From positions 1 to 40,825 of the IMG/VR virus record IMGVR_UViG_2917398303_000002: DNA of 40,825 bases. The stretch is one strand, 5' to 3'. Positions 1 through 36,112 of this stretch are shown piece by piece (position 1 is the first letter of the stretch; every line of letters starts with the position of its first letter). A program made the position numbers and the translations under genes. The notes beneath the pieces are model-generated. The model was not told the DNA's origin. It worked only from the letters and a program-made list of their open reading frames with translations, and ran no database searches. The stretch is from a virus (Duplodnaviria; Heunggongvirae; Uroviricota; Caudoviricetes).

Positions 1-1158
1 ATGCTCACCGTTAAGCAGATTGAAGCAGCAAAGCCGAAAGAAAAACCATACCGCCTACTCGATGGTAATGGCCTGTACCTTTATGTCCCTGTATCAGGGA
101 AAAAGGTATGGCAGCTTCGCTACAAGATTGACGGTAAGGAGAAAATCCTGACTGTCGGAAAATATCCGCTTATGACTTTGCAGGAAGCAAGGGATAAGGC
201 ATGGACCGCAAGGAAAGACATCTCAGTTGGCATCGATCCGGTAAAGGCGAAAAAGGCTTCGTCTAACAACAATTCCTTTAGTGCGATTTACAAGGAATGG
301 TACGAGCACAAGAAGCAAGTCTGGTCTGTAGGTTATGCTACTGAACTTGCAAAAATGTTTGATGACGACATTTTACCTATCATCGGCGGCCTTGAAATTC
401 AGGATATTGAGCCGATGCAACTTCTTGAAGTAATCCGCAGGTTTGAAGATCGCGGTGCAATGGAGCGAGCCAACAAAGCACGCAGAAGATGCGGCGAGGT
501 TTTCCGTTACGCTATTGTCACCGGAAGGGCTAAATATAACCCAGCACCTGACCTTGCTGACGCCATGAAGGGATACCGCAAGAAGAACTTCCCGTTTCTT
601 CCTGCAGACCAGATCCCGGCATTCAACAAAGCCCTGGCAACATTTTCAGGAAGTATCGTATCGCTCATTGCCACCAAGGTTTTACGCTATACAGCCCTAA
701 GAACGAAAGAGCTTCGTTCCATGCAATGGAAGAACGTCGATTTTGAAAACAGGATTATCACCATCGACGCCAATGTGATGAAGGGACGCAAAATTCATGT
801 GGTCCCGATGTCAGACCAGGTGGTTGAACTTCTCACTACGCTAAGCTCCATCACTAAACCAGTATCAGAGTTTGTTTTTGCCGGACGCAACGATAAGAAG
901 AAGCCAATCTGCGAGAACGCGGTGCTACTTGTGATCAAGCAAATCGGCTATGAAGGTCTGGAAAGCGGTCACGGATTCAGGCATGAATTCAGCACTATTA
1001 TGAACGAGCACGAATGGCCTGCTGACGCTATTGAAGTGCAACTGGCACATGCCAACGGCGGATCTGTGCGTGGAATTTATAACCATGCTCAGTATCTCGA
1101 TAAGCGCAGAGAAATGTTGCAGTGGTGGGCGGATTGGCTTGATGAAAAGGTGGAGTGA
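1..1158 (+). CDS. intS: Tyrosine integrase, P4 family (IntS-like); the ORF begins exactly at the window edge and appears complete
   Basis: N-terminus LTVKQIEAAKP...YRLLDGNGLYLYV...VWQLRY is the arm-binding motif of P4-type integrases; C-terminal catalytic region with HxxR-type motif (GHGFRHE); position directly upstream of gtrABC as at argW in E. coli K-12. Confidence 0.9.
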   Translation: MLTVKQIEAAKPKEKPYRLLDGNGLYLYVPVSGKKVWQLRYKIDGKEKILTVGKYPLMTLQEARDKAWTARKDISVGIDPVKAKKASSNNNSFSAIYKEWYEHKKQVWSVGYATELAKMFDDDILPIIGGLEIQDIEPMQLLEVIRRFEDRGAMERANKARRRCGEVFRYAIVTGRAKYNPAPDLADAMKGYRKKNFPFLPADQIPAFNKALATFSGSIVSLIATKVLRYTALRTKELRSMQWKNVDFENRIITIDANVMKGRKIHVVPMSDQVVELLTTLSSITKPVSEFVFAGRNDKKKPICENAVLLVIKQIGYEGLESGHGFRHEFSTIMNEHEWPADAIEVQLAHANGGSVRGIYNHAQYLDKRREMLQWWADWLDEKVE

Positions 1159-1310: not shown

Positions 1311-1673
1311 ATGTTTAAGCTTTTCGCGAAATACACATCGATAGGTGTACTTAACACCATCATACACTGGGTTGTGTTTGCGGCGTGTATCTACGGTGCC
1401 GAGACAAGTCAGGCACTGGCAAACTTCGCAGGGTTCGTTTTGGCCGTGAGTTTCAGTTTCTTTGCAAACGCCAGATTCACGTTCAAAGCCTCTACGACAA
1501 CGACACGCTACGTGCTTTATGTTGCATTCATGGGAGCATTGAGTGCAATTGTTGGCTGGGCTGCTGACAAATGTGCCCTTCCTCCTCTCGTCACTCTTAT
1601 TACCTTCTCCGCTATCAGTCTGGTAAGCGGATTCATCTATTCCAAGTTCATTGTCTTTAGAGTTGCGAAATGA
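1311..1673 (+). CDS. gtrA: GtrA, bactoprenol-linked glucose translocase (flippase); start moved to internal Met (MFKLFAKY)
   Basis: About 120 aa, small hydrophobic protein with [17 protein letters not shown] motif typical of GtrA; 4-bp overlap (ATGA) with gtrB. Confidence 0.85.
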
Positions 1674-2584
1674 AGATATCTCTGGTCGTTCCTGTTTTCA
1701 ATGAAGAAGACGCGATACCTATTTTCTATAAAACAGTTCGTGAATTCGACGCATTGAAAAAATATGACATCGAAATCGTATTCATCAATGATGGAAGCAA
1801 AGATGCTACGGAATCTATTATCAATGCATTGGCCACATCTGATCCGTTGGTAATGCCACTATCATTCACTCGAAACTTTGGTAAAGAGCCAGCTCTGTTT
1901 GCAGGATTGGACCATGCAACAGGAGAAGCCGTTATCCCTATTGATGTAGACCTGCAGGACCCTATTGAGGTTATCCCTCATCTTATTGAGAAATGGCAGG
2001 CCGGTGCAGACATGGTGCTAGCGAAGCGTACAGATCGGTCAACAGATGGTCGATTAAAACGTAAGACTGCCGAGTGGTTTTATAAACTGCACAACAAAAT
2101 CAGCATCCCTAAGATAGAAGAAAATGTTGGTGACTTTCGCCTGATGTCCCGTGAAGTAGTAGATAACATCAAGTTGCTTCAAGAAAGAAATCTTTTTATG
2201 AAGGGGGTACTTAGTTGGGTTGGTGGAAGAACCGATGTCGTCGAATACACTCGCGCTGAACGTATAGCGGGTAACTCAAAGTTTAATGGATGGAAACTAT
2301 GGAATCTTGCACTCGAGGGGATTACAAGTTTTTCTACATTTCCTTTGCGAGTATGGACATACATTGGCCTATTAGTTGCAGGAGTTGCTTTTATTTATGG
2401 GGCATTAATGATTCTTGACAAACTAATCTACGGAAACAATGTTCCAGGTTATCCTTCTCTACTTGTATCAATACTCTTCCTTGGGGGGGTTCAACTTATT
2501 GGAATCGGAGTGCTAGGGGAATATATAGGAAGGATTTATTTAGAGTCCAAAAAAAGACCTCGTTACATTATAAAAAAAAGGTAA
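1670..2584 (+). CDS. gtrB: GtrB, bactoprenol glucosyltransferase (GT2 family)
   Basis: [13 protein letters not shown]...INDGSKD N-terminal GT2 signature, DxD-like VDLQD, C-terminal membrane anchor; position between gtrA and gtrC. Confidence 0.9.
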
Positions 2585-2590
2585 TAACTA

Positions 2591-4111
2591 ATGTTTTCAA
2601 AAGAAACGATAAATAAATTATTTTATTTTACATGCATAATTTCATGCTTGGTAACCATATTCCTTACATCTAGATTTAGCTATACATGGATCACAGATCC
2701 TGATTCAGCAAATAGCCCTATAATGTGGAAAGAGTTTTTGGCACATGGGTTTAATGCTTTCAATAACTGGAAGCCAACATTTGATAACTGGTATTTTACC
2801 GTATACCCTATAAATTTTCTTTTATTTTTCATTTTTAATGAAAATGGCTTTGTGCCTTTAATGCTTTCCAGTGCGATTTTCATAATTGCAATTTGCCTAT
2901 GTTCATCAAAGATCGCAGATATGTTATCTGGTAAAACTGCTGCTTTTGCAGCATTAATATCAATAACACTAATATCTCCAGATCTATATAGCAATTATTA
3001 TTCGCATCCTTTTTCTCATAATTCAACAAATGCATTCGGATTTGTTGTATTAGCAATATACATAATAACTCTCTCAAGCAAGAAAATAATTCCTGCCGCT
3101 TCCATTTTTATACTCTTAGTACTTTCTGGAGCTTCTGACCCTTGGATATTACCATCTTTTACACTACCTATATTGATATCTGAGGCTTACAATTCATTCA
3201 TCAATAGAAAAAGTTACAAATACTTTATCTTTCTATTGCTTGCATTTTTAACATCTTATTTGAATCTAGTTCAACACCTTTTTGATCTACCGACTGGCGA
3301 GTTCAAAATAACAACATTTGAACAGATGATATCTAATGCACAGTATGCAATAGTATTAACAGCAAAAATGATGCCATTGTGGGTAAACCCATCAGCATCT
3401 ATGTCATATTTTATTGTTTTAATATGGGTAGCCGTGTTCATAGCTGCTGCTTTAGTTTGTTTTAATAGAGGTAAAGAATTACGCATCTTTTCTATTTGCT
3501 GCGTCCTTTCAGTCCTTGGAATTTACTCTTCATCTATAATTGGAGATCAATTCCCGCATCAACGTTTTTATGTAAATGTTGCTCCCGTTGTTTTCTTGTT
3601 AACCTCTGTAGCCATAAGATTTTATAAAGCTTTCTTAATACCACTTTTCATAACTATTTGTGTTTCTGTTTATGGGTATTGTAACTCACCATTAAAATAC
3701 GAAGAAAATAAAAACCCAGTTTATGAATATATGACCTTCCTTTCCAACAATAATCTAAGTTATGGTTATGGTAGTTTTTGGTATTCTATGAATATGACAG
3801 TGAATTGGTTATCAAAAGACCAAATACATATAACACCTGTTTTCTTTAACCCTGAAACTGGTGTTGTGTATTTTCAGCCTGCAAGAATACAAACACTGTC
3901 TTCATGGCATACAAAGGAATTCATAAGCGGTAAACCAAACAGACAATTTATTGCCATAACTCAGGGACAAACCGGTGGTGATACATGTCCAAACGTTCAA
4001 ATATGTATTGATGGTGCTCAGAAGCAATTAGGAAAAGCCGATGAAATCCTATCATATAAGAACACGACATTCTTGGTGTACAACAAACCAATTGAAACAG
4101 ATATAAAGTAA
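2591..4111 (+). CDS. GtrC-type serotype-specific O-antigen glucosyltransferase (polytopic membrane protein), family not assignable
   Basis: 506 aa, many hydrophobic segments, third gene of gtr operon; conspicuously AT-rich compared with flanking genes. Confidence 0.6.
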   Translation: MFSKETINKLFYFTCIISCLVTIFLTSRFSYTWITDPDSANSPIMWKEFLAHGFNAFNNWKPTFDNWYFTVYPINFLLFFIFNENGFVPLMLSSAIFIIAICLCSSKIADMLSGKTAAFAALISITLISPDLYSNYYSHPFSHNSTNAFGFVVLAIYIITLSSKKIIPAASIFILLVLSGASDPWILPSFTLPILISEAYNSFINRKSYKYFIFLLLAFLTSYLNLVQHLFDLPTGEFKITTFEQMISNAQYAIVLTAKMMPLWVNPSASMSYFIVLIWVAVFIAAALVCFNRGKELRIFSICCVLSVLGIYSSSIIGDQFPHQRFYVNVAPVVFLLTSVAIRFYKAFLIPLFITICVSVYGYCNSPLKYEENKNPVYEYMTFLSNNNLSYGYGSFWYSMNMTVNWLSKDQIHITPVFFNPETGVVYFQPARIQTLSSWHTKEFISGKPNRQFIAITQGQTGGDTCPNVQICIDGAQKQLGKADEILSYKNTTFLVYNKPIETDIK

Positions 4112-18795: not shown

Positions 18796-20295
18796 TTAAG
18801 TTCTCCGTGCGATGGGCCTGATTGGGGCTGGTATCTTTTTCTCTTTTGGTTTTTTGATGTCGCGCATCATTTTGGCGAAGCGGCGCATCATGTATGCATA
18901 GCGAACGGCGGAGAGCACGTCGTCGTTAAGCTTGACGATTTTCCCGTTTTCATCACGGTGATAGAGGCGGAACTCTTCAAAAAATGGCTCACAGGTGTTG
19001 AATACTTTGAAGCGACCATCGAGCATCATGTCGCGCAATTCAGTGATGCCAGGCTCAACAGCATTACCGTCATCAGGCCATGTCGCATGCTCCTGCAACA
19101 TCATAAAACCAGCGTCCGCGTACTGCCCTTTAAGCTGCTCACCGCCGCCCTTCTCATGCTGGTTTCCGTCATGAGGCCATGCGGTTGGCACTTTATGCGC
19201 CCATGACTTAACGGCTCCCCAAGCCTGAACGGCTGTCTTTTCTTTCGCCTTCCACACGCGTGAAAGGTAGATTATGTCTGCATCCTTATCCCACCAAAGC
19301 TGAACCTGCGCCTGTGGGTGATCCCATCCGAAATCCATCCCGTTAATTACGTAGAAGTGATCAGGACACTCGAACGGCTGACACTTAATCGTCTCTTCCG
19401 GTATCTGGAAGATTCGACCGCTACCCATCGTGGGAATACCGCGAGCACGCGCCTCTCTCTCATGCTCGGGATAGGATGCGATGATTTGCTCTTTCTGCTC
19501 GTCGGTGTAGTGCTCAGCGTCGTAGATGGTCATGTTGACCACTTTCTGCGACTTGCTGGGATTCTTCAGGAACTTGGTAACAACGTCAGACATCCCCATC
19601 AGCGGGGTAAACGTCAGAATTGAGAATTGACCGTATTTGTTGGTACGGGTAAGGCCTTCGCCATAAATGCTGTATGGTGGTTCTTCGTCAAACCAGACGC
19701 CATGGATTGTGTCACCCTGCCAGCGGGCGCGGCCTTGCGAGTATGGCTTGAAGTAGCAGATTGAAATGCCATCTTCAACCCCATCAGCCGTGTGATGCTT
19801 AACCAGAAGATGATCAACAAGGTTCGGAAAGAAAGGAGACTTCTTCCAGCTAATGATGTCTTCTTTCGGTATGGAACCGTAGCCAGGTTCACCATTCTCT
19901 TCGATACGACCGCACAGGATGCGTTGAGTCGTTTTGGTTACAGTCTCGTTTGTCTCGCCACCAATCCAGAAGACAACAGGCTCATAGAAACGCTTACCTT
20001 TCCACTCACCGCCATATTTACCATCAGCAGGATAGCCTTTTGTGCCCGGATAACGCCCGGTAAGGTGAAACGCGACTTCAGCAGCACCAGTAAATGACTT
20101 ACCAAGCTGGTTACCAGCCATAAAACATCGCTCTGGATAGTCATGCCCGGCGTCGATGAACTCACGCTGTTTGCTGTATGGCGTAAATTCATATAGCAGG
20201 TGTGTGTTCCGGTAGTTCTCTTCTTCTTCGAGTAGCTCGAGCAATTCGATTTGCTCTTCGTCGCTCAGGTTATCAAGAATCGCGTCCAGTTCCAC
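18796..20295 (-). CDS. Terminase large subunit, P22 gp2-like
   Basis: 499 aa; Walker A-like [13 protein letters not shown]; directly after small terminase. Confidence 0.9.
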
Positions 20296-22199: not shown

Positions 22200-22637
22200 T
22201 TATTTCAGGCATTGCGTCCTGATGTACTCCTGCAGGTAGTTAACCTGCGCGGTTATCCTGTCGATTCCACTTCGGAGACGGTAATAATTGAGTTCAGCAT
22301 CTGCTGTAAGTCTTGGGCTTTCTCCATCGCCCATGCTGCTGGCTCCGGTCGTTGACTTTGCACAGGTGGCGGCGACTTGCAGGCGCTTACGACCAGCAGA
22401 AACATCAGCACGGAGGCTTTCGATAGTCGCGTTAGCATCAGCAAGCTCCTTTGTGTATCTGGCGTCAAGTTCTGCTACATCACGTTGACGCTTGTGCATG
22501 TCAGCAATTGTGGATGCGGCCTTATCGCGCTGCTCTTTGTAGGCGATGGCGTTATCACGGTAATGATTGACCGCCCACGACAGACAGACGACGATGCAGA
22601 TAATCAGAGCGGAGATAATCGCGATTACTCTGCTCAT
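22200..22637 (-). CDS. Rz: Rz i-spanin
   Basis: 145 aa, N-terminal transmembrane segment then coiled-coil; follows endolysin with 4-bp overlap. Confidence 0.8.
22253..22438 (-). CDS. Rz1: Rz1 o-spanin lipoprotein, embedded in +1 frame of Rz
   Basis: [20 protein letters not shown] lipobox signal followed by Pro-rich mature region, fully inside Rz. Confidence 0.65.
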
Positions 22638-23110
22638 ACCTCAATCTCTCTGACCGTTCCGCCTGCTTCTTTGAATTTTGCAATCAGGTTGTCAGCCTTA
22701 TGCTCGAACTGACCATAACCAGCACCCGGCAACGAAGCCCAGATATTGCTGCAACGGTCGATTGCCTGACGGATGTCACCGCGATCAATCATCGGTAAAG
22801 CGCCACGCTCTTTAATCTGTTGCAGTGCCACAGCGTCCTGGTTTTTCGGAGAGAAGTCTTTCAGGCCAAGCTGCTTACGATAGGCATCCCACCAACGGGA
22901 AAGAAGCTGGTAACGTCCGGCGGCTGTTGATTTGAGTTTTGGGTTTAGCGTGACAAGTTTGCGAGGGTGATCTGAGTAATCAGTGAACAGCTCTCCGCCT
23001 ACAATGACGTCATAACCATGATTTCTGGTTTTCTGTCGTCCGTTATCAGTTCCCTCTGACCACGCCAGCATATCGAGGAACGCCTTACGTTGATTATTGA
23101 TTTCCACCAT
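22634..23110 (-). CDS. R: Endolysin, lambda R-type lytic transglycosylase
   Basis: 158 aa; [24 protein letters not shown]... near-identical to lambda R as recalled. Confidence 0.9.
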
Positions 23111-23113
23111 CTT

Positions 23114-23416
23114 CTACTCCGGCTTTTTAGCAGCGAAGCGTTTGATAAGCGAACCAATCGAGTCAGTACCGATGTAGCCGATGAACACGCTCGTTATATA
23201 AGCGAGATTGCTACTTAGTCCGGCGAAGTCGAGAAGGTCACGAATGAACCAGGCGATAATGGCGCACATCGTTGCGTCGATTACTGTTTTTGTAAACGCA
23301 CCGCCATTATATCTGCCGCGAAGGTACGCCATTGCAAACGCAAGGATTGCCCCGATGCCTTGTTCCTTTGCCGCGAGAATGGCGGCTAACAGGTCATGTT
23401 TTTCTGGCATCTTCAT
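23114..23416 (-). CDS. S: Holin, lambda S-type class I, with dual-start Met1-Lys2-Met3
   Basis: [34 protein letters not shown]... matches lambda S as recalled. Confidence 0.9.
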
Positions 23417-23658
23417 GTCTTACCCCCAATAAGGGGATTTGCTCTATTTAATTAGGAATAAGGTCGATTACTGATAGAACAAATCCAGGCTACTGTGTTT
23501 AGTAATCAGATTTGTTCGTGACCGATATGCACGGGTAAAACGGCATGAGGTTGTTAGCGCAACCTCCTGCCACCCGCTTTCACGAAGGTCATGTGTAGAA
23601 GGCCGCAGCATAACTATCACTGATGAATTCAGGATAGCCAGTGGCTACGGCTCAGTTA

Positions 23659-23734
23659 TGGTGCTGGTTAACGGACTTGAACCGCTACCCATTCGCTTAC
23701 AAGGCGACTGCTCTACCATTGGAGCTAAACCAGT
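23659..23734 (-). tRNA. tRNA-like gene, predicted anticodon UGU (Thr)
   Basis: Hand-folded cloverleaf: D stem GCTC/GAGC, anticodon loop CTTGTAA, T arm AGCGG-TTCAAGT-CCGTT, 3' ...AACCAGC-A-CCA; position 1-72 mismatch. Confidence 0.55.
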
Positions 23735-23739
23735 ATATT

Positions 23740-23814
23740 TGGCGGGACAGCGTGGACTCGAACCACGATAAGAAGGTTAACAGCCTTCCGTAATGACCTT
23801 TATACGACTGACCC
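23740..23814 (-). tRNA. tRNA-like gene, predicted anticodon GUU (Asn)
   Basis: Hand-folded cloverleaf: anticodon stem GAAGG/CCTTC with loop CTGTTAA, T arm CGTGG-TTCGAGT-CCACG, 3' CTGTCCC-G-CCA; one acceptor mismatch, short D stem. Confidence 0.55.
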
Positions 23815-23877
23815 AAATAAAAAAAGCCACCGTTGCAACTTAAGAGTCACTAACGGCAGCTTACCCTCTAATTATGG

Positions 23878-24396
23878 CTAAATGGCTAATTGCATGTCAA
23901 GACTTTTAACAGCAACATGCTTAACTTTCTCAACACGTTTACGCATTTTGAAAGCATTTTGCATTGGTTGGTACAAAACAAATAACGACGCTTTCAGGAT
24001 GTCGTCAATTTCATTTCTACAGGTTGCCAGTGAAGGTTTTCTCCATCCCTCGCCACCACGTCCACACATCTTGCGTGGCTTTGCAGTCGCGTGATAGTAG
24101 GATGCAATTGCTCGCTTAGATGAACCATGAGCGTAGTAGCTGAGGAGGATGCCAAAGGCTTTCTTGTCAATGTACATGACGGAATCGACGACCTGAGAAA
24201 TCAACATTCCATCATCATCATTACACATTGGCCTTGTCATAACTCTTCCCGGCTCTACGCTCTCCATGAACTTCGCTATTACGCTGCTCATGCGCTTTTC
24301 CAGACGACCTGAATAAACCCATGCTCCCCACAGTTCAAGCCAGCCATTCAGCCACTCGTGCTGCTCTTTGGTGAGGTTTAGTTCTCTTATGCTCAT
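23878..24396 (-). CDS. Late-gene antiterminator, Q-like (non-lambda Q family)
   Basis: 172 aa with Cys/His cluster; canonical Q position between nin genes and lysis cassette; family assignment from memory only. Confidence 0.6.
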   Translation of the reverse strand: MSIRELNLTKEQHEWLNGWLELWGAWVYSGRLEKRMSSVIAKFMESVEPGRVMTRPMCNDDDGMLISQVVDSVMYIDKKAFGILLSYYAHGSSKRAIASYYHATAKPRKMCGRGGEGWRKPSLATCRNEIDDILKASLFVLYQPMQNAFKMRKRVEKVKHVAVKSLDMQLAI

Positions 24397-32507: not shown

Positions 32508-32756
32508 ATGATAAAAACTGATTACCCTGCAGAACTTAAACGAAAAGTAATAACAGCAATTAAATGCTCTTTTATCTCATGTCGTACAGATGAAGAACGA
32601 TATGTCGTTGAGTGTGCAATTGTCGAGTTTCTCACAGCGATGGAATTTACCGCTGCAGAATCAATAGATGTATTAAAGCAATCAGACGGAAATAATATTG
32701 AAACGGATGATGTTATTGACCGACTGATAAAATCATTCGAAGAAGAAATAGAGTAG
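32508..32756 (+). CDS. Hypothetical early-left protein (82 aa)
   Basis: ORF in operon orientation. Confidence 0.4.
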   Translation: MIKTDYPAELKRKVITAIKCSFISCRTDEERYVVECAIVEFLTAMEFTAAESIDVLKQSDGNNIETDDVIDRLIKSFEEEIE

Positions 32757-32974: not shown

Positions 32975-33111
32975 CCATTAATCACCAGATGCTTCGTGCT
33001 GCACAAAACAAAGCAGTAATAGCCAGATTTATTGGTGATTCAAAAATGTGGCTTGAAGCAAATAAAGCGATGAAATCAGCTATCAACCTTCCGTGGTATC
33101 GCAGGAAATGA
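32959..33111 (+). CDS. kil: Kil-like host-killing/FtsZ-inhibiting small protein
   Basis: ORF not in track: MRNEIAINHQMLRAAQNKAVIARFIGDSKMWLEANKAMKSAINLPWYRRK; IARFIGDSKMW resembles lambda Kil IATFIGDEKMF as recalled. Confidence 0.5.
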   Translation: MRNEIAINHQMLRAAQNKAVIARFIGDSKMWLEANKAMKSAINLPWYRRK

Positions 33112-33192
33112 GTTTTACAGATAACTGTTCAGACGAAGAATTCATTCGTCAGATGAACAAAATGCTCAATCAGCACAAAGAACAGGAGAAGG

Positions 33193-33504
33193 ATGATGAT
33201 TCTGACTCTGAATGATAAGCGTGAAATATCTCAAATCATCGCAAGTTTTACTGATGAAGATTACGAACGAATCAACAGTGAAGTTGATCGTCTCTGCAAA
33301 CGTTGCGACCCAATAAGCGAAATGCTTCGCTCATATAAACCAGATGAACACACTAAGGACGCTATCGACTGGCTGGAAGATGATGACTGTAACTATCAGG
33401 AAAAAGCCGCTGAATGGTTCTGGGATGCAATAACCGAAAGAGTTAAGGCTGAATATGCCTTCGCAATATTCAAACGCAGACACATTTTTGGAGAAGCTGC
33501 ATGA
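33193..33504 (+). CDS. Hypothetical protein (103 aa) upstream of RecT; occupies the gam/arf position
   Basis: ORF, 4-bp overlap with recT. Confidence 0.4.
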   Translation: MMILTLNDKREISQIIASFTDEDYERINSEVDRLCKRCDPISEMLRSYKPDEHTKDAIDWLEDDDCNYQEKAAEWFWDAITERVKAEYAFAIFKRRHIFGEAA

Positions 33505-34403
33505 GCAATATCGTTGAATTCGTTAAACAGCAGGAGCAGTTATTCTGCGGAGCATTGACTGAACAGACGGTGACATGGGCTAAGGAAAGCCAGTTTGCAA
33601 TTCAGTATTTCCAGAAAAACGATTACCTGGCTAAAACGGCACTGGCAAATCCAACCAGCGCACAGAACGCCATCATCAATGTTGCGGCGATCGGCATCAC
33701 CTTAAACCCGGCCAGCAAACTGGCTTATCTAGTTCCGCGCGACGGCATGGTTTGCCTTGATATCAGCTATATGGGATTACTTCATCTTGCGCAATCGACA
33801 GGCTCAATTAAGTGGGGGCAATGCAAACTGGTGTACTCAAACGACACCTATGAATCAAACGGCCTTGATTCAGCACCAACCCACAAATACAACGCATTTG
33901 GTGAGCGAGGCTCTATTGTTGGTGGTTATTGCACGGTTAAAACAGCAGATGGTGACTACCTGACTGAAGAAATGAGTCTGGCAGAAATTAAAGCAGTTGA
34001 AGCAACGAGCAAGGCAAAGAATGGACCGTGGAAAACATTCTGGGAAGAGATGGCGCGTAAAACAATAGTTAAACGCGCCAGCAAATACTGGCCTAAAGCC
34101 CAGCGACTGGATAATGCCATTCACCTGCTTAACGAAGATGAAGGTATGCATCAAGAACCAGTTATGCCGCACAAATCAGAGGAAGATATCCGCGAAGATG
34201 AACGGAAACGCCAGCAGGAAATAATGGATAAAGCACAACTTCTTTGCGATGAAATGGCTCAGGCAGAAAACATGGATGATTTGAAGCGATATTTTGCAGA
34301 AGCATATCGCCTGACATCTGGAATGAAATTGCAGCAGAACGTACAAGCCATTTACATAGAATGCAAAGCGAAACTGGAGGTTGCCAGTGAGCAAACTGTA
34401 TGA
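33501..34403 (+). CDS. recT: RecT-family single-strand annealing recombinase
   Basis: 300 aa; ...AKNGPWKTFWEEMARKTIVKRASKYWP... is the RecT signature region. Confidence 0.85.
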   Translation: MSNIVEFVKQQEQLFCGALTEQTVTWAKESQFAIQYFQKNDYLAKTALANPTSAQNAIINVAAIGITLNPASKLAYLVPRDGMVCLDISYMGLLHLAQSTGSIKWGQCKLVYSNDTYESNGLDSAPTHKYNAFGERGSIVGGYCTVKTADGDYLTEEMSLAEIKAVEATSKAKNGPWKTFWEEMARKTIVKRASKYWPKAQRLDNAIHLLNEDEGMHQEPVMPHKSEEDIREDERKRQQEIMDKAQLLCDEMAQAENMDDLKRYFAEAYRLTSGMKLQQNVQAIYIECKAKLEVASEQTV

Positions 34404-34869
34404 AATTGCCAATGAATACGCAAAATTGATGGATTCAGATTTAGAACCAGAGATGATTGCTGACACAATAGAAGGCATGGAAGGAGAATTTACCGATAAA
34501 ATAGAGCAACTTCTTGCCATTATTAAAAATGAGTCTGGTTATGCTGAACGCCTCAAGGAAGAGGCAAAGTCACTGAATGAAAGAGCAGCAGTAATTCAAA
34601 ATAAGATTGATAGCATTATGACGTATATAGCGTCATCGCTTGAAATGGTTGGAAAGAAAAAGATTCGAGCAGGTATTCACCAGGTAACAATCCGCAAACC
34701 GTCAGAAACTGTAGAAATCATCGACTCAAGCGCCCTTCCTCCAGAATACGTTGAGTTTGAAACAACAATTAAAGCCGACAAACTGGCAATCAAACACCAA
34801 CTAAAAGCAGGAATAAATATCCCCGGCGCTCAACTCAAAGTTGGGAAACCTTCACTTCTTATCAAATAA
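34381..34869 (+). CDS. Gp157-family protein (commonly accompanies phage recombinases)
   Basis: 162 aa coiled-coil protein immediately after recT; family call from memory. Confidence 0.45.
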   Translation: MPVSKLYEIANEYAKLMDSDLEPEMIADTIEGMEGEFTDKIEQLLAIIKNESGYAERLKEEAKSLNERAAVIQNKIDSIMTYIASSLEMVGKKKIRAGIHQVTIRKPSETVEIIDSSALPPEYVEFETTIKADKLAIKHQLKAGINIPGAQLKVGKPSLLIK

Positions 34870-35650: not shown

Positions 35651-36112
35651 ATGAAACAAATGTCACTAATTGAGATGGATGGTTTTCTGAAAGGTAAATG
35701 CATCCCAAGTGATTTAAAGGTTAACGAAACAAACGCTGAATATCTGGTGCGTAAATTTGCTGAAGCGCAGGCCAAGTGCGCGGCGCTGGCAGCGGAGAAT
35801 GCGGGGCTGAAGTCTGGCGCTATGGACGAAATCAAGGTTATCAACCGTGGAGGGCAGGCATATTGCGTAAAAGATGGAGTGCAAGTTAATCCCATGTATG
35901 CAAGAGGGTGGAATGACTATCGCGCAAAGTCTCTGCAATCAGACCCCCCAGCCACCGATGCTTTCCTGGCTGAAATTGAACGCAAAGCAATCCGCAAGTT
36001 CATTAACAGCATTGAACACATCCTGCGTGACAAGTTGTCACCGTATGACACCGAAGAGATGCTTGAGACTATGCGTATTTTTCTGGAAGAACAGGGAGGC
36101 GAGCAAAAATGA
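35651..36112 (+). CDS. Hypothetical protein (153 aa)
   Basis: ORF, 4-bp overlap with next gene. Confidence 0.4.

Follow-up and report, generated by a model that had tools for sequence, protein, structure and literature searches.

Tandem tRNA genes with the anticodons GUU (Asn) and UGU (Thr) have been reported downstream of Q in phages Sf6, ST64T, PS3, and p21 in the study that describes phage SfI (PMC3636060), and the phage L paper describes tRNAs at the same position in some P22-like phages (PMC8022706). The SfI authors concluded that codon supply explains only part of the arrangement and that the significance of the Asn gene is 'not clear' (PMC3636060), and the transcriptome study of phage BTP1 treats its two tRNA genes as loci of high expression and has the late operon start directly after them (PMC7067206).

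The Thr member has also been characterized functionally. The P2 Old protein kills by cutting the host tRNA-Thr(UGU), the product of the single-copy thrU gene and the sole UGU tRNA of the host, after the C of paired CNG motifs (PMC12445682), which lie in the anticodon stem at nucleotides 28-30 and 40-42 (Govande et al. 2025, PMC12445682). Cells that carry the tRNA-Thr of phage 21 (tRNAThr21) are protected from P2-OLD; in vitro this tRNA resists cleavage, and its resistance depends on both the changed CNG motifs and the shorter anticodon stem (PMC12445682). A July 2026 preprint reports that the Thr(UGU) tRNA of HK446 strongly rescues HK97, HK542, and Bas34 from OLD, but that rescue by a single Thr tRNA is partial, in that lambda and recB cells are not rescued, and that HK446 also carries a protein inhibitor, Oad2 (bioRxiv 10.64898/2026.07.10.737580). 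Asn(GUU) does not rank among the top five of the tRNAs that OLD depletes in that study, which overlooked the tRNA-Asn of HK446 while assaying its tRNA-Thr, and its authors suggest that the HK446 tRNA may serve the temperate lifestyle (bioRxiv 10.64898/2026.07.10.737580).

A second nuclease with overlapping targets is AriB of the PARIS system, which acts on Lys(UUU), Thr(UGU), and, less strongly, Asn(GUU) (Belukhina et al. 2025, PMC12409363). AriB cuts between positions 40 and 41 within the site U36-A-A-U39-C40, and substitution of U39 with A abolishes cleavage; position 41 is contributory, and the site alone is insufficient for recognition (PMC12409363). Phage T5 encodes Lys, Thr, and Asn variants that jointly neutralise PARIS, with Lys(UUU) being the prime AriB target and required for T5 to bypass the system (PMC12409363).

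The DNA analysed here (the window, 40,825 nucleotides in full length) derives from a P22-like (Lederbergvirus-type) E. coli phage whose nearest relatives are IME10 and APC_JM3.2, and it also encodes CI, N, CIII, Kil, a RecT-like protein, a Mu-Gam-like protein, and an integrase. The late control and lysis region has the following features, listed from upstream to downstream on the minus strand:

23878-24396, minus strand: Q-family late antiterminator of 172 aa, of the Sf6 gene 59 / phage 21 Q type (phrog_943)
23871-23900, minus strand: late promoter PR', with TTGACA, an 18-nt spacer, and CATAAT (promoter scan, 11 of 12 matches)
23815-23862, minus strand: tR', the intrinsic terminator of the short PR' leader, with a hairpin at 23824-23862 and then U7AU3
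23740-23814, minus strand: tRNA-Asn(GUU), 75 nt with encoded CCA (ARAGORN and Rfam)
23735-23739, minus strand: intergenic spacer of 5 nt, AAUAU in the RNA
23659-23734, minus strand: tRNA-Thr(UGU), 76 nt with encoded CCA (ARAGORN and Rfam)
23417-23658, minus strand: untranslated late leader from tRNA-Thr to S
23114-23416, minus strand: holin S of the lambda S family with the dual start MKM (phrog_126 holin/anti-holin, E 4e-38)
22634-23110, minus strand: R, an ORF for a lambda-type lysis gene
22200-22637, minus strand: Rz/Rz1, ORFs for lambda-type lysis genes

An earlier note, made by reading the letters of the window, had placed two tRNA-like sequences with UGU and GUU anticodons, encoded CCA ends, and a 5-nt separation on the late strand between Q and the holin gene, and all of this is borne out. 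ARAGORN finds exactly two tRNA genes across the 40.8-kb window, both on the minus strand with tRNA-Asn first in the transcript and tRNA-Thr second. The Rfam tRNA model (RF00005, gathering score 29) scores each at 55.3 bits (E ~2e-9), far beyond chance for both calls, and has no further match in the window.

The two sequences are genuine tRNA genes. Each has the 7-bp acceptor stem, the D, anticodon, and T arms, U33, the 7-nt anticodon loop, the UUCRA T-loop, and a score above the curated threshold, as is canonical for an elongator tRNA, and the departures from this pattern are few. In tRNA-Asn they are U4·U69 and U13·U22, and in tRNA-Thr they are A1·C72, G27·A43 at the top of the anticodon stem, and C14 in the D-loop in place of the usual A14. 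The acceptor-stem irregularities that had been noticed earlier, a 1-72 mismatch in one gene and an internal T-T in the other, are thus real, and G27·A43 and C14 of tRNA-Thr are two that were absent from the earlier description. The anticodon arms are GUCGC/GCGAA in tRNA-Thr and GAAGG/CCUUC in tRNA-Asn. The determinants listed for E. coli AsnRS are the G73 discriminator, G34-U35-U36, and A37 (PMC9976931 Table 1), and the set is complete in the tRNA-Asn of the window. The tRNA structure is also under selection in the family. In a set of 20 distinct Thr sequences, pairing in the cloverleaf register reaches 94.8% of cells compared with at most 49.5% in slid controls, both sides have changed in ten pairs, and the observed values are reached by none of 500 shuffles. 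The cassette itself shows the compensatory changes G5-C68 to U5-A68 (five loci) and A49-U65 to G49-C65 (one).

The earlier note had also considered the pair not to be the set expected at this position, which is not supported. The pair is the already known late-leader cassette of phage 21 and Sf6, long annotated in these phages and in SfI and BTP1 (PMC3636060; PMC8022706). The sequences are near-identical, with Asn followed by Thr and a 5-nt spacer between them; the pair directly follows the tR' of a PR' under Q control and precedes the holin gene. In the curated records of Sf6 and phage 21, the elements PR', qut/QBE, tR', tRNA-Asn, and tRNA-Thr are annotated in the same arrangement as in the window. 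A 341-nt query from the end of Q through the tRNAs matches 120 phage records, 28 of which cover at least 80% of the query at 96.8-98.8% identity; full-length matches include Sf6, BTP1, SPN9CC, and vB_SosS_Oslo, and matches over the tRNAs include phage 21, SfI, HK446, and mEp506. The order, the 5-nt spacing, and the place of the pair, immediately behind the U-tract of tR' and ahead of the lysis genes, are shared with phage 21, Sf6, SfI, BTP1, and HK446, although the genome backbone of the window is a different mosaic from those of the phage 21/Sf6-type carriers. The tRNA-Asn of phage 21, Sf6, and HK446 is 100% identical to that of the window, and the tRNA-Thr of the same three phages shares 75 of 76 nt with the tRNA-Thr of the window, the single difference being G1 there and A1 here. 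The pair itself is therefore nothing new, being annotated in dozens of phage records and having a functionally characterized Thr member.

The set that the earlier reader expected was probably that of the Stx phages. Stx-converting lambdoid phages carry the tRNA genes ileZ-argN-argO downstream of Q and tR', which decode rare Ile and Arg codons. They lie in the same place, with Q/PR'/tR' on one side and the late genes on the other, and share Q-dependent expression, but their anticodons differ from the Asn and Thr of the window and the Stx set fits codon supplementation; ARAGORN finds no Stx-type Ile(CAU) or Arg(UCU or UCG) tRNA in the window.

The cassette is widespread in phages of E. coli. The 156-nt pair is present in 369 of 5426 complete E. 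coli genomes, and a scan of species-representative (GTDB) genomes with the Asn anticodon and T arms returned only four loci (in Escherichia sp., E. albertii, and two gut MAG bins) and no chromosomal donor. A pattern scan of IMG/VR, with the acceptor stems left free, yielded 121 cassette loci. The tRNA-Asn is identical to that of the window in 104 of them and U4·U69 is kept in 118; G27·A43 is kept in all cassette-type Thr alleles, and position 14 of tRNA-Thr in relatives is C, or U in seven loci, where A is usual. U4·U69 and G27·A43 are thus family-wide features. The spacer is AACAT in 62 relatives, AATAT in 56, and GACAT in three, and the leader sequence downstream of the pair is common to 106 of 120 relatives. 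Across the 121 loci the pair follows a phage-21-type tR' behind at least three to four different promoter regions, and in HK446 it directly follows a lambda-type tR', so that it behaves as a small mobile module within the late leader. In a scan of IMG/VR with the Asn gene only, 109 loci have Asn followed by Thr, eight have Asn followed by a degenerate Thr and Gly(UCC), one has Asn, Thr, and Gly, two have Asn alone, and one has Thr alone; the partner tRNAs vary too little for a match with the target lists of the nucleases to be assessed.

The control elements upstream of the pair are those of a Q-dependent late operon. The Q ORF matches phrog_943 ('anti-termination protein Q-like') with an E value of 1.8e-93, and the Sf6 region from Q to the lysis genes has about 97% DNA identity with the window. 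PR' overlaps the 3' end of the Q gene, is identical to the annotated promoter of Sf6, and lies at a position equivalent to the annotated PR'/QBE of phage 21; its spacer carries a direct repeat, TTAGCCA x2, which is a candidate Q-binding element. The terminator has homologues in phage 21 and Sf6, where they are annotated as tR', and folds with -20.2 kcal/mol (z = -4.16, with none of 200 shuffles equally stable), and G1 of tRNA-Asn directly adjoins its U-tract. S is the first protein gene of the late operon, and the leader at 23417-23658 resembles the lambda sequence just ahead of S. As a separate observation, the C-terminus of the holin is frameshifted in the window.

We think it fairly probable that the two tRNAs are functional, that they make up the first 156 nt of the late transcript that Q antiterminates, and that they serve as spares that escape nucleases as well as providing extra decoding of ACA. 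Judging from the anatomy of the region and the annotation of phage 21 and Sf6, RNA polymerase would start at PR', at about 23864, and without Q would stop at tR' (23815-23862); with Q it would pass the terminator and transcribe tRNA-Asn and tRNA-Thr, then the leader, and after that the genes for lysis and for the head. Host processing enzymes would then excise the tRNAs and, because CCA is encoded, CCA addition would not be needed. The dependence of readthrough on Q implies that the tRNAs would enter the pool exactly as the late proteins are made.

The case for nuclease escape centres on the anticodon arms, which compare with those of the host as follows:

Host thrU: nt 36-41 UAAUCA; nt 28-30/40-42 CUG/CAG; 27-43 paired
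Window Thr: nt 36-41 UAAGCG; nt 28-30/40-42 UCG/CGA; G27·A43 unpaired
Host asnT: nt 36-41 UAAUCC; nt 28-30/40-42 CGG/CCG
Window Asn: nt 36-41 UAACCU; nt 28-30/40-42 AAG/CUU

The tRNA-Thr of the window has lost both CNG motifs and is unpaired at 27·43, which are the sequence features of a P2-OLD-resistant tRNA-Thr(UGU). It is identical to tRNAThr21 and the HK446 tRNA-Thr at nucleotides 2-76, the anticodon arm included. It thus has the published resistant arm, and the 'irregular' G27·A43 is one of the published determinants of OLD resistance. U39, the loss of which is the sequence feature of AriB resistance, is replaced in both tRNAs, by G39 (together with G41) in Thr and by C39 in Asn. The tRNA-Asn of the window lacks both CNG motifs and the UAAUC site, and host asnT has both. 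The suggestion in the earlier note that the pair might be processed for another role was apt.

The proposed action of the spares is as follows. The host tRNA-Thr(UGU) is the only ACA decoder, the prime target of Old, and a main target of AriB, and the phage tRNA-Thr would replace it as a form that lacks the nuclease determinants, with UCG/CGA for the CNG motifs, a stem shortened by G27·A43, and G39 and G41 for U39 and A41. Escape from a host-resident nuclease has been shown by experiment for Thr alleles that are identical but for nucleotide 1. The tRNA-Asn would likewise lack the determinants, with AAG/CUU and C39 for U39, although its role is deduced from these substitutions. The extra decoding capacity would fall on ACA, a codon that the window phage over-uses 3-fold. 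The best-supported role is thus to provide, at late onset, a nuclease-resistant Thr tRNA, probably such an Asn tRNA as well, and extra ACA decoding.

A more specific proposal for the Asn gene is that it may be a second nuclease-resistant spare and not a codon-supply gene, so that the cassette would be a two-tRNA countermeasure to OLD-family Toprim tRNases; we put this forward tentatively, as rather less than an even chance. Such a countermeasure may match the targets that P2 Old and PARIS AriB share; these nucleases are encoded by P2-like prophages and P4-like satellites, which share their hosts with lambdoid and P22-like phages and are their competitors there. The T5 variants offer a parallel, having the UGU and GUU anticodons in common with the cassette, the loss of U39, and further changes at positions 40 and 41. 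However, the sequences are unrelated, the window phage is temperate, and T5 has an array of about 25 tRNAs including Lys(UUU), whereas the window has two tRNAs and ARAGORN finds no Lys(UUU) gene in it. A search of the window for recognised triggers of OLD found no lambda Gam, Abc2, or complete Gp33 and gave only a 21-aa Gp33 fragment and the Mu-Gam-like protein. The window does encode a homologue of Oad2, with 38% identity. We also considered HepS, the Gifsy-1 anticodon nuclease, and set it aside; it acts on Thr(GGU), with Thr(UGU) secondary, and because siphovirus tail tips are its trigger, it has no obvious bearing on a podovirus of the P22 type.

The context gives the cassette its interest: here a small temperate phage opens its late transcript with tRNAs predicted to resist nucleases, and such tRNAs are not limited to large lytic phages with tRNA arrays. 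If the Asn gene is a counter-defence against PARIS or OLD, this would explain a gene whose significance genome papers call 'not clear', and the use of tRNAs as anti-defence tools would extend to widespread prophages, which about 7% of the complete genomes of E. coli contain.

The strongest alternative is that the tRNAs only supplement decoding of codons that the phage prefers and have no relation to defence systems. The earlier note had proposed that the pair may supply codons rare in the host but frequent in late genes, and a comparison of codon usage in the window genes with that of 42 K-12 genes upholds this for Thr: ACA is used at 16.4 against 5.4 per 1000, a 3.0-fold enrichment (p = 1e-18), the SfI paper finds the same bias (17.3 vs 7.1; PMC3636060), and the host has only the single-copy thrU for this anticodon (PMC12445682). 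For Asn it is not upheld. AAT is enriched 1.7-fold, total Asn codons in late genes amount to 58 against 38 per 1000, and the capsid gene of phage L uses AAC for 24 of its 25 Asn codons (PMC8022706), but AAC is enriched only 1.16-fold in the window, which is not significant (p = 0.06). The most over-used codons are AGA (8.4-fold), AGG (7.5-fold), and AUA (5-fold), and yet the window carries Asn and Thr and not the Stx-type Ile and Arg tRNAs, with no tRNA for AGA, AGG, or AUA among the ARAGORN predictions. E. coli has four asn tRNA genes of its own, and the SfI authors were without an explanation for the Asn gene. Overexpression of host thrU protects little or not at all against OLD, whereas the phage alleles do protect, so that sequence matters and not only dose. 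Furthermore, neither phage tRNA has any of its five anticodon-stem pairs in common with its host counterpart, and the differences lie exactly where the nucleases read. Codon supply as the sole function is therefore unlikely in our estimation, while extra ACA decoding is retained within the reading that we prefer.

A second alternative is that the Thr gene of this particular window is a damaged or decaying copy, in which the change of G1 to A has produced a poor tRNA or a pseudogene and only tRNA-Asn is functional. The rare G1 to A allele and the frameshifted holin tail are the only features specific to the window. The 1-72 mismatch that the earlier note had seen in one gene of the pair is present here but is not characteristic of the cassette, as nucleotide 1 is G, paired as G1-C72, in 120 of 121 IMG/VR relatives; an allele-specific scan found A1 in three IMG/VR contigs, and the exact pair sequence of the window occurs in six of the 369 pair-bearing E. 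coli genomes. The determinants listed for bacterial ThrRS are G1-C72, C2-G71, G4-C69, G5-C68, G35, and U36 (PMC9976931 Table 1), and all but the first are retained, G1-C72 being replaced by A1·C72. The Rfam score falls from 61.5 bits with G1 to 55.3 with A1, and the predicted cloverleaf energy weakens from -23.1 to -19.1 kcal/mol, a loss of about 4 kcal/mol that makes a non-cloverleaf fold the predicted MFE. In all six A1 genomes, tRNA-Asn is the only tRNA that RefSeq lists under the match, where G1 genomes list both, and the A1 Thr copy is unannotated by the NCBI pipeline in both of the genomes inspected. The loss of a listed determinant, the rarity of the allele, the weaker fold, the RefSeq omission, and a holin C-terminus that is also frameshifted in the same window all point in the direction of decay.

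Against this, ARAGORN still calls the gene and its Rfam score stands well above the threshold of 29, the other listed ThrRS determinants are intact, and thermodynamic folding is blind to tertiary contacts and modifications. The A1 allele is found behind two Q types, lambda-type in strain A3 and Sf6-type in AST215, and the contigs that bear it are 90-96% identical in their flanks, which indicates a lineage that has persisted and spread and not a sequencing error. We regard decay of the Thr gene as improbable, more so than codon supply alone. Within the preferred reading, the change of G1 to A would remove one acceptor-stem determinant of ThrRS and destabilise the cloverleaf, so that, to go by the sequence, the A1 tRNA-Thr may be charged more weakly than tRNAThr21 and the HK446 tRNA-Thr and may work less well than the common G1 allele.

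That the cassette makes up for a host tRNA gene that prophage integration has disrupted, as raised for HK446 in a 2026 preprint (bioRxiv 10.64898/2026.07.10.737580) and in keeping with the integration of many relatives into thrW (HK446 by its attP annotation, and SfI), is very hard to sustain, as the cassette occurs with unrelated integration modules and Q types, thrW-integrating phages rebuild the gene from attP (PMC8022706), the genes sit behind tR' and are thereby tied to late transcription and not to lysogeny, a search of the window for a thrW-type attP core in the P22 or HK446 version found neither, and the Asn gene would be left unexplained. Finally, an ORF on the plus strand at 23641-23793 (50 aa) overlaps the tRNA genes and is regarded as spurious.

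A counterpart of the window cassette is found in phage HK446 (L131, JQ086372.1), where ARAGORN calls tRNA-Asn(GUU) at 1511-1585 and tRNA-Thr(UGU) at 1591-1666, and the two genes are the same in sequence as the window pair except at nt 1 of tRNA-Thr. The HK446 pair lies directly 3' of a lambda-type tR'. It is not annotated in the GenBank record (JQ086372.1), which contains no tRNA annotation at all, and HK446 is credited with a single tRNA, Thr(UGU), in a recent preprint (bioRxiv 10.64898/2026.07.10.737580). Among the E. coli RefSeq genomes with the exact window pair, including the A1 allele of tRNA-Thr, two have different types of Q:

L132 (E. coli A3), 1201-1356: exact window pair (A1 allele), lambda-type Q upstream
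L133 (E. coli AST215), 20001-20156: exact window pair (A1 allele), Sf6-type Q upstream

In these A1-allele genomes the NCBI annotation includes tRNA-Asn and omits tRNA-Thr, even as a pseudogene; in G1-allele genomes both tRNAs are annotated.

The tRNA-Thr is also atypical in its D-loop, which begins with C14 (window 23721, minus strand) in place of the near-universal A14, and seven relatives have U14 instead of C14. The T5 tRNA-Thr likewise departs from A14 and has U14. In most tRNAs A14 pairs with U8. Contacts to the D-loop are noted for AriB, the PARIS nuclease that targets host tRNA-Thr(UGU) (PMC12409363).

A less common, three-gene version of the cassette (Asn, Thr and Gly(UCC)) occurs at IMG/VR loci L028, L064, L065, L009, L074, L082 and L092. 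In it the 3' half of the Thr gene is similar to host thrU, and the Gly(UCC) gene, which is glyT-like, follows 2-3 nt beyond the Thr gene. Gly(UCC) is among the targets of the P2 prophage tRNA nuclease Old (OLD; bioRxiv 10.64898/2026.07.10.737580). The Thr anticodon arm of L092 is of the intact, OLD-sensitive host type; in the six other loci it is ACUGA/UCAUC, with two mismatches, and these Thr genes score 49 bits by Rfam and are not called by ARAGORN. On the related viral contig L028, an Rfam match to the gammaproteobacterial sRNA STnc100 (258-435, minus strand; 105 bits, gathering score 47) lies about 0.8 kb downstream of the cassette.

The PR' spacer of the window contains two direct copies of TTAGCCA (23877-23894, minus strand). 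Sf6 has the same repeat, but phage 21 has a different Q-binding element (ATTGAGCA / AATGAGCA), which suggests that the window phage has Q specificity of the Sf6 type.

Four other genes in the window are of note:

32508-32756, plus strand: protein of the 'anti-restriction' family (phrog_14587), early-left operon, with 97.6% identity to HK446 gp36
33501-34403, plus strand: RecT-like annealing protein, early-left operon
34381-34869, plus strand: Mu-Gam-like end-protection protein, early-left operon
35651-36112, plus strand: 153-aa ORF of phrog_614 (function unknown), resembling HK446 gp27

The first three occupy the place at which relatives have Erf/Abc2 or Red/Gam modules, and the match to the OLD trigger Gp33 is confined to its first 21 residues (33108-33170). 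The phrog_614 ORF aligns from end to end with HK446 gp27 at 38% identity (tblastn, E 7e-27), and gp27 is Oad2, a protein inhibitor of P2 Old. An HK75 homologue that is 54% identical to Oad2 does not inhibit OLD (both from the July 2026 preprint, bioRxiv 10.64898/2026.07.10.737580), and OLD inhibition therefore cannot be inferred for the window ORF.

Two further features concern the late genes and their surroundings:

23114-23416, minus strand: holin S, 100 aa instead of 107, with a frameshift in its 3' end near 23114-23135
1311-4111, plus strand: three consecutive ORFs of about 120, 304 and 506 aa, next to the late genes at their tail end

The last codons of holin S become ...KKPE* because one nucleotide is missing from a run of A (AAAAAAG to AAAAAG). 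In the sample of 61 full-length relatives, every holin has 107 residues, with a C-terminal end that is common to them or a close variant of it. The shortening may reflect a sequencing error in the homopolymer, or it may be a true truncation of the cytoplasmic tail that alters lysis timing. The three ORFs have the position and sizes that a gtrABC-like O-antigen modification operon would have, and are a candidate for one.
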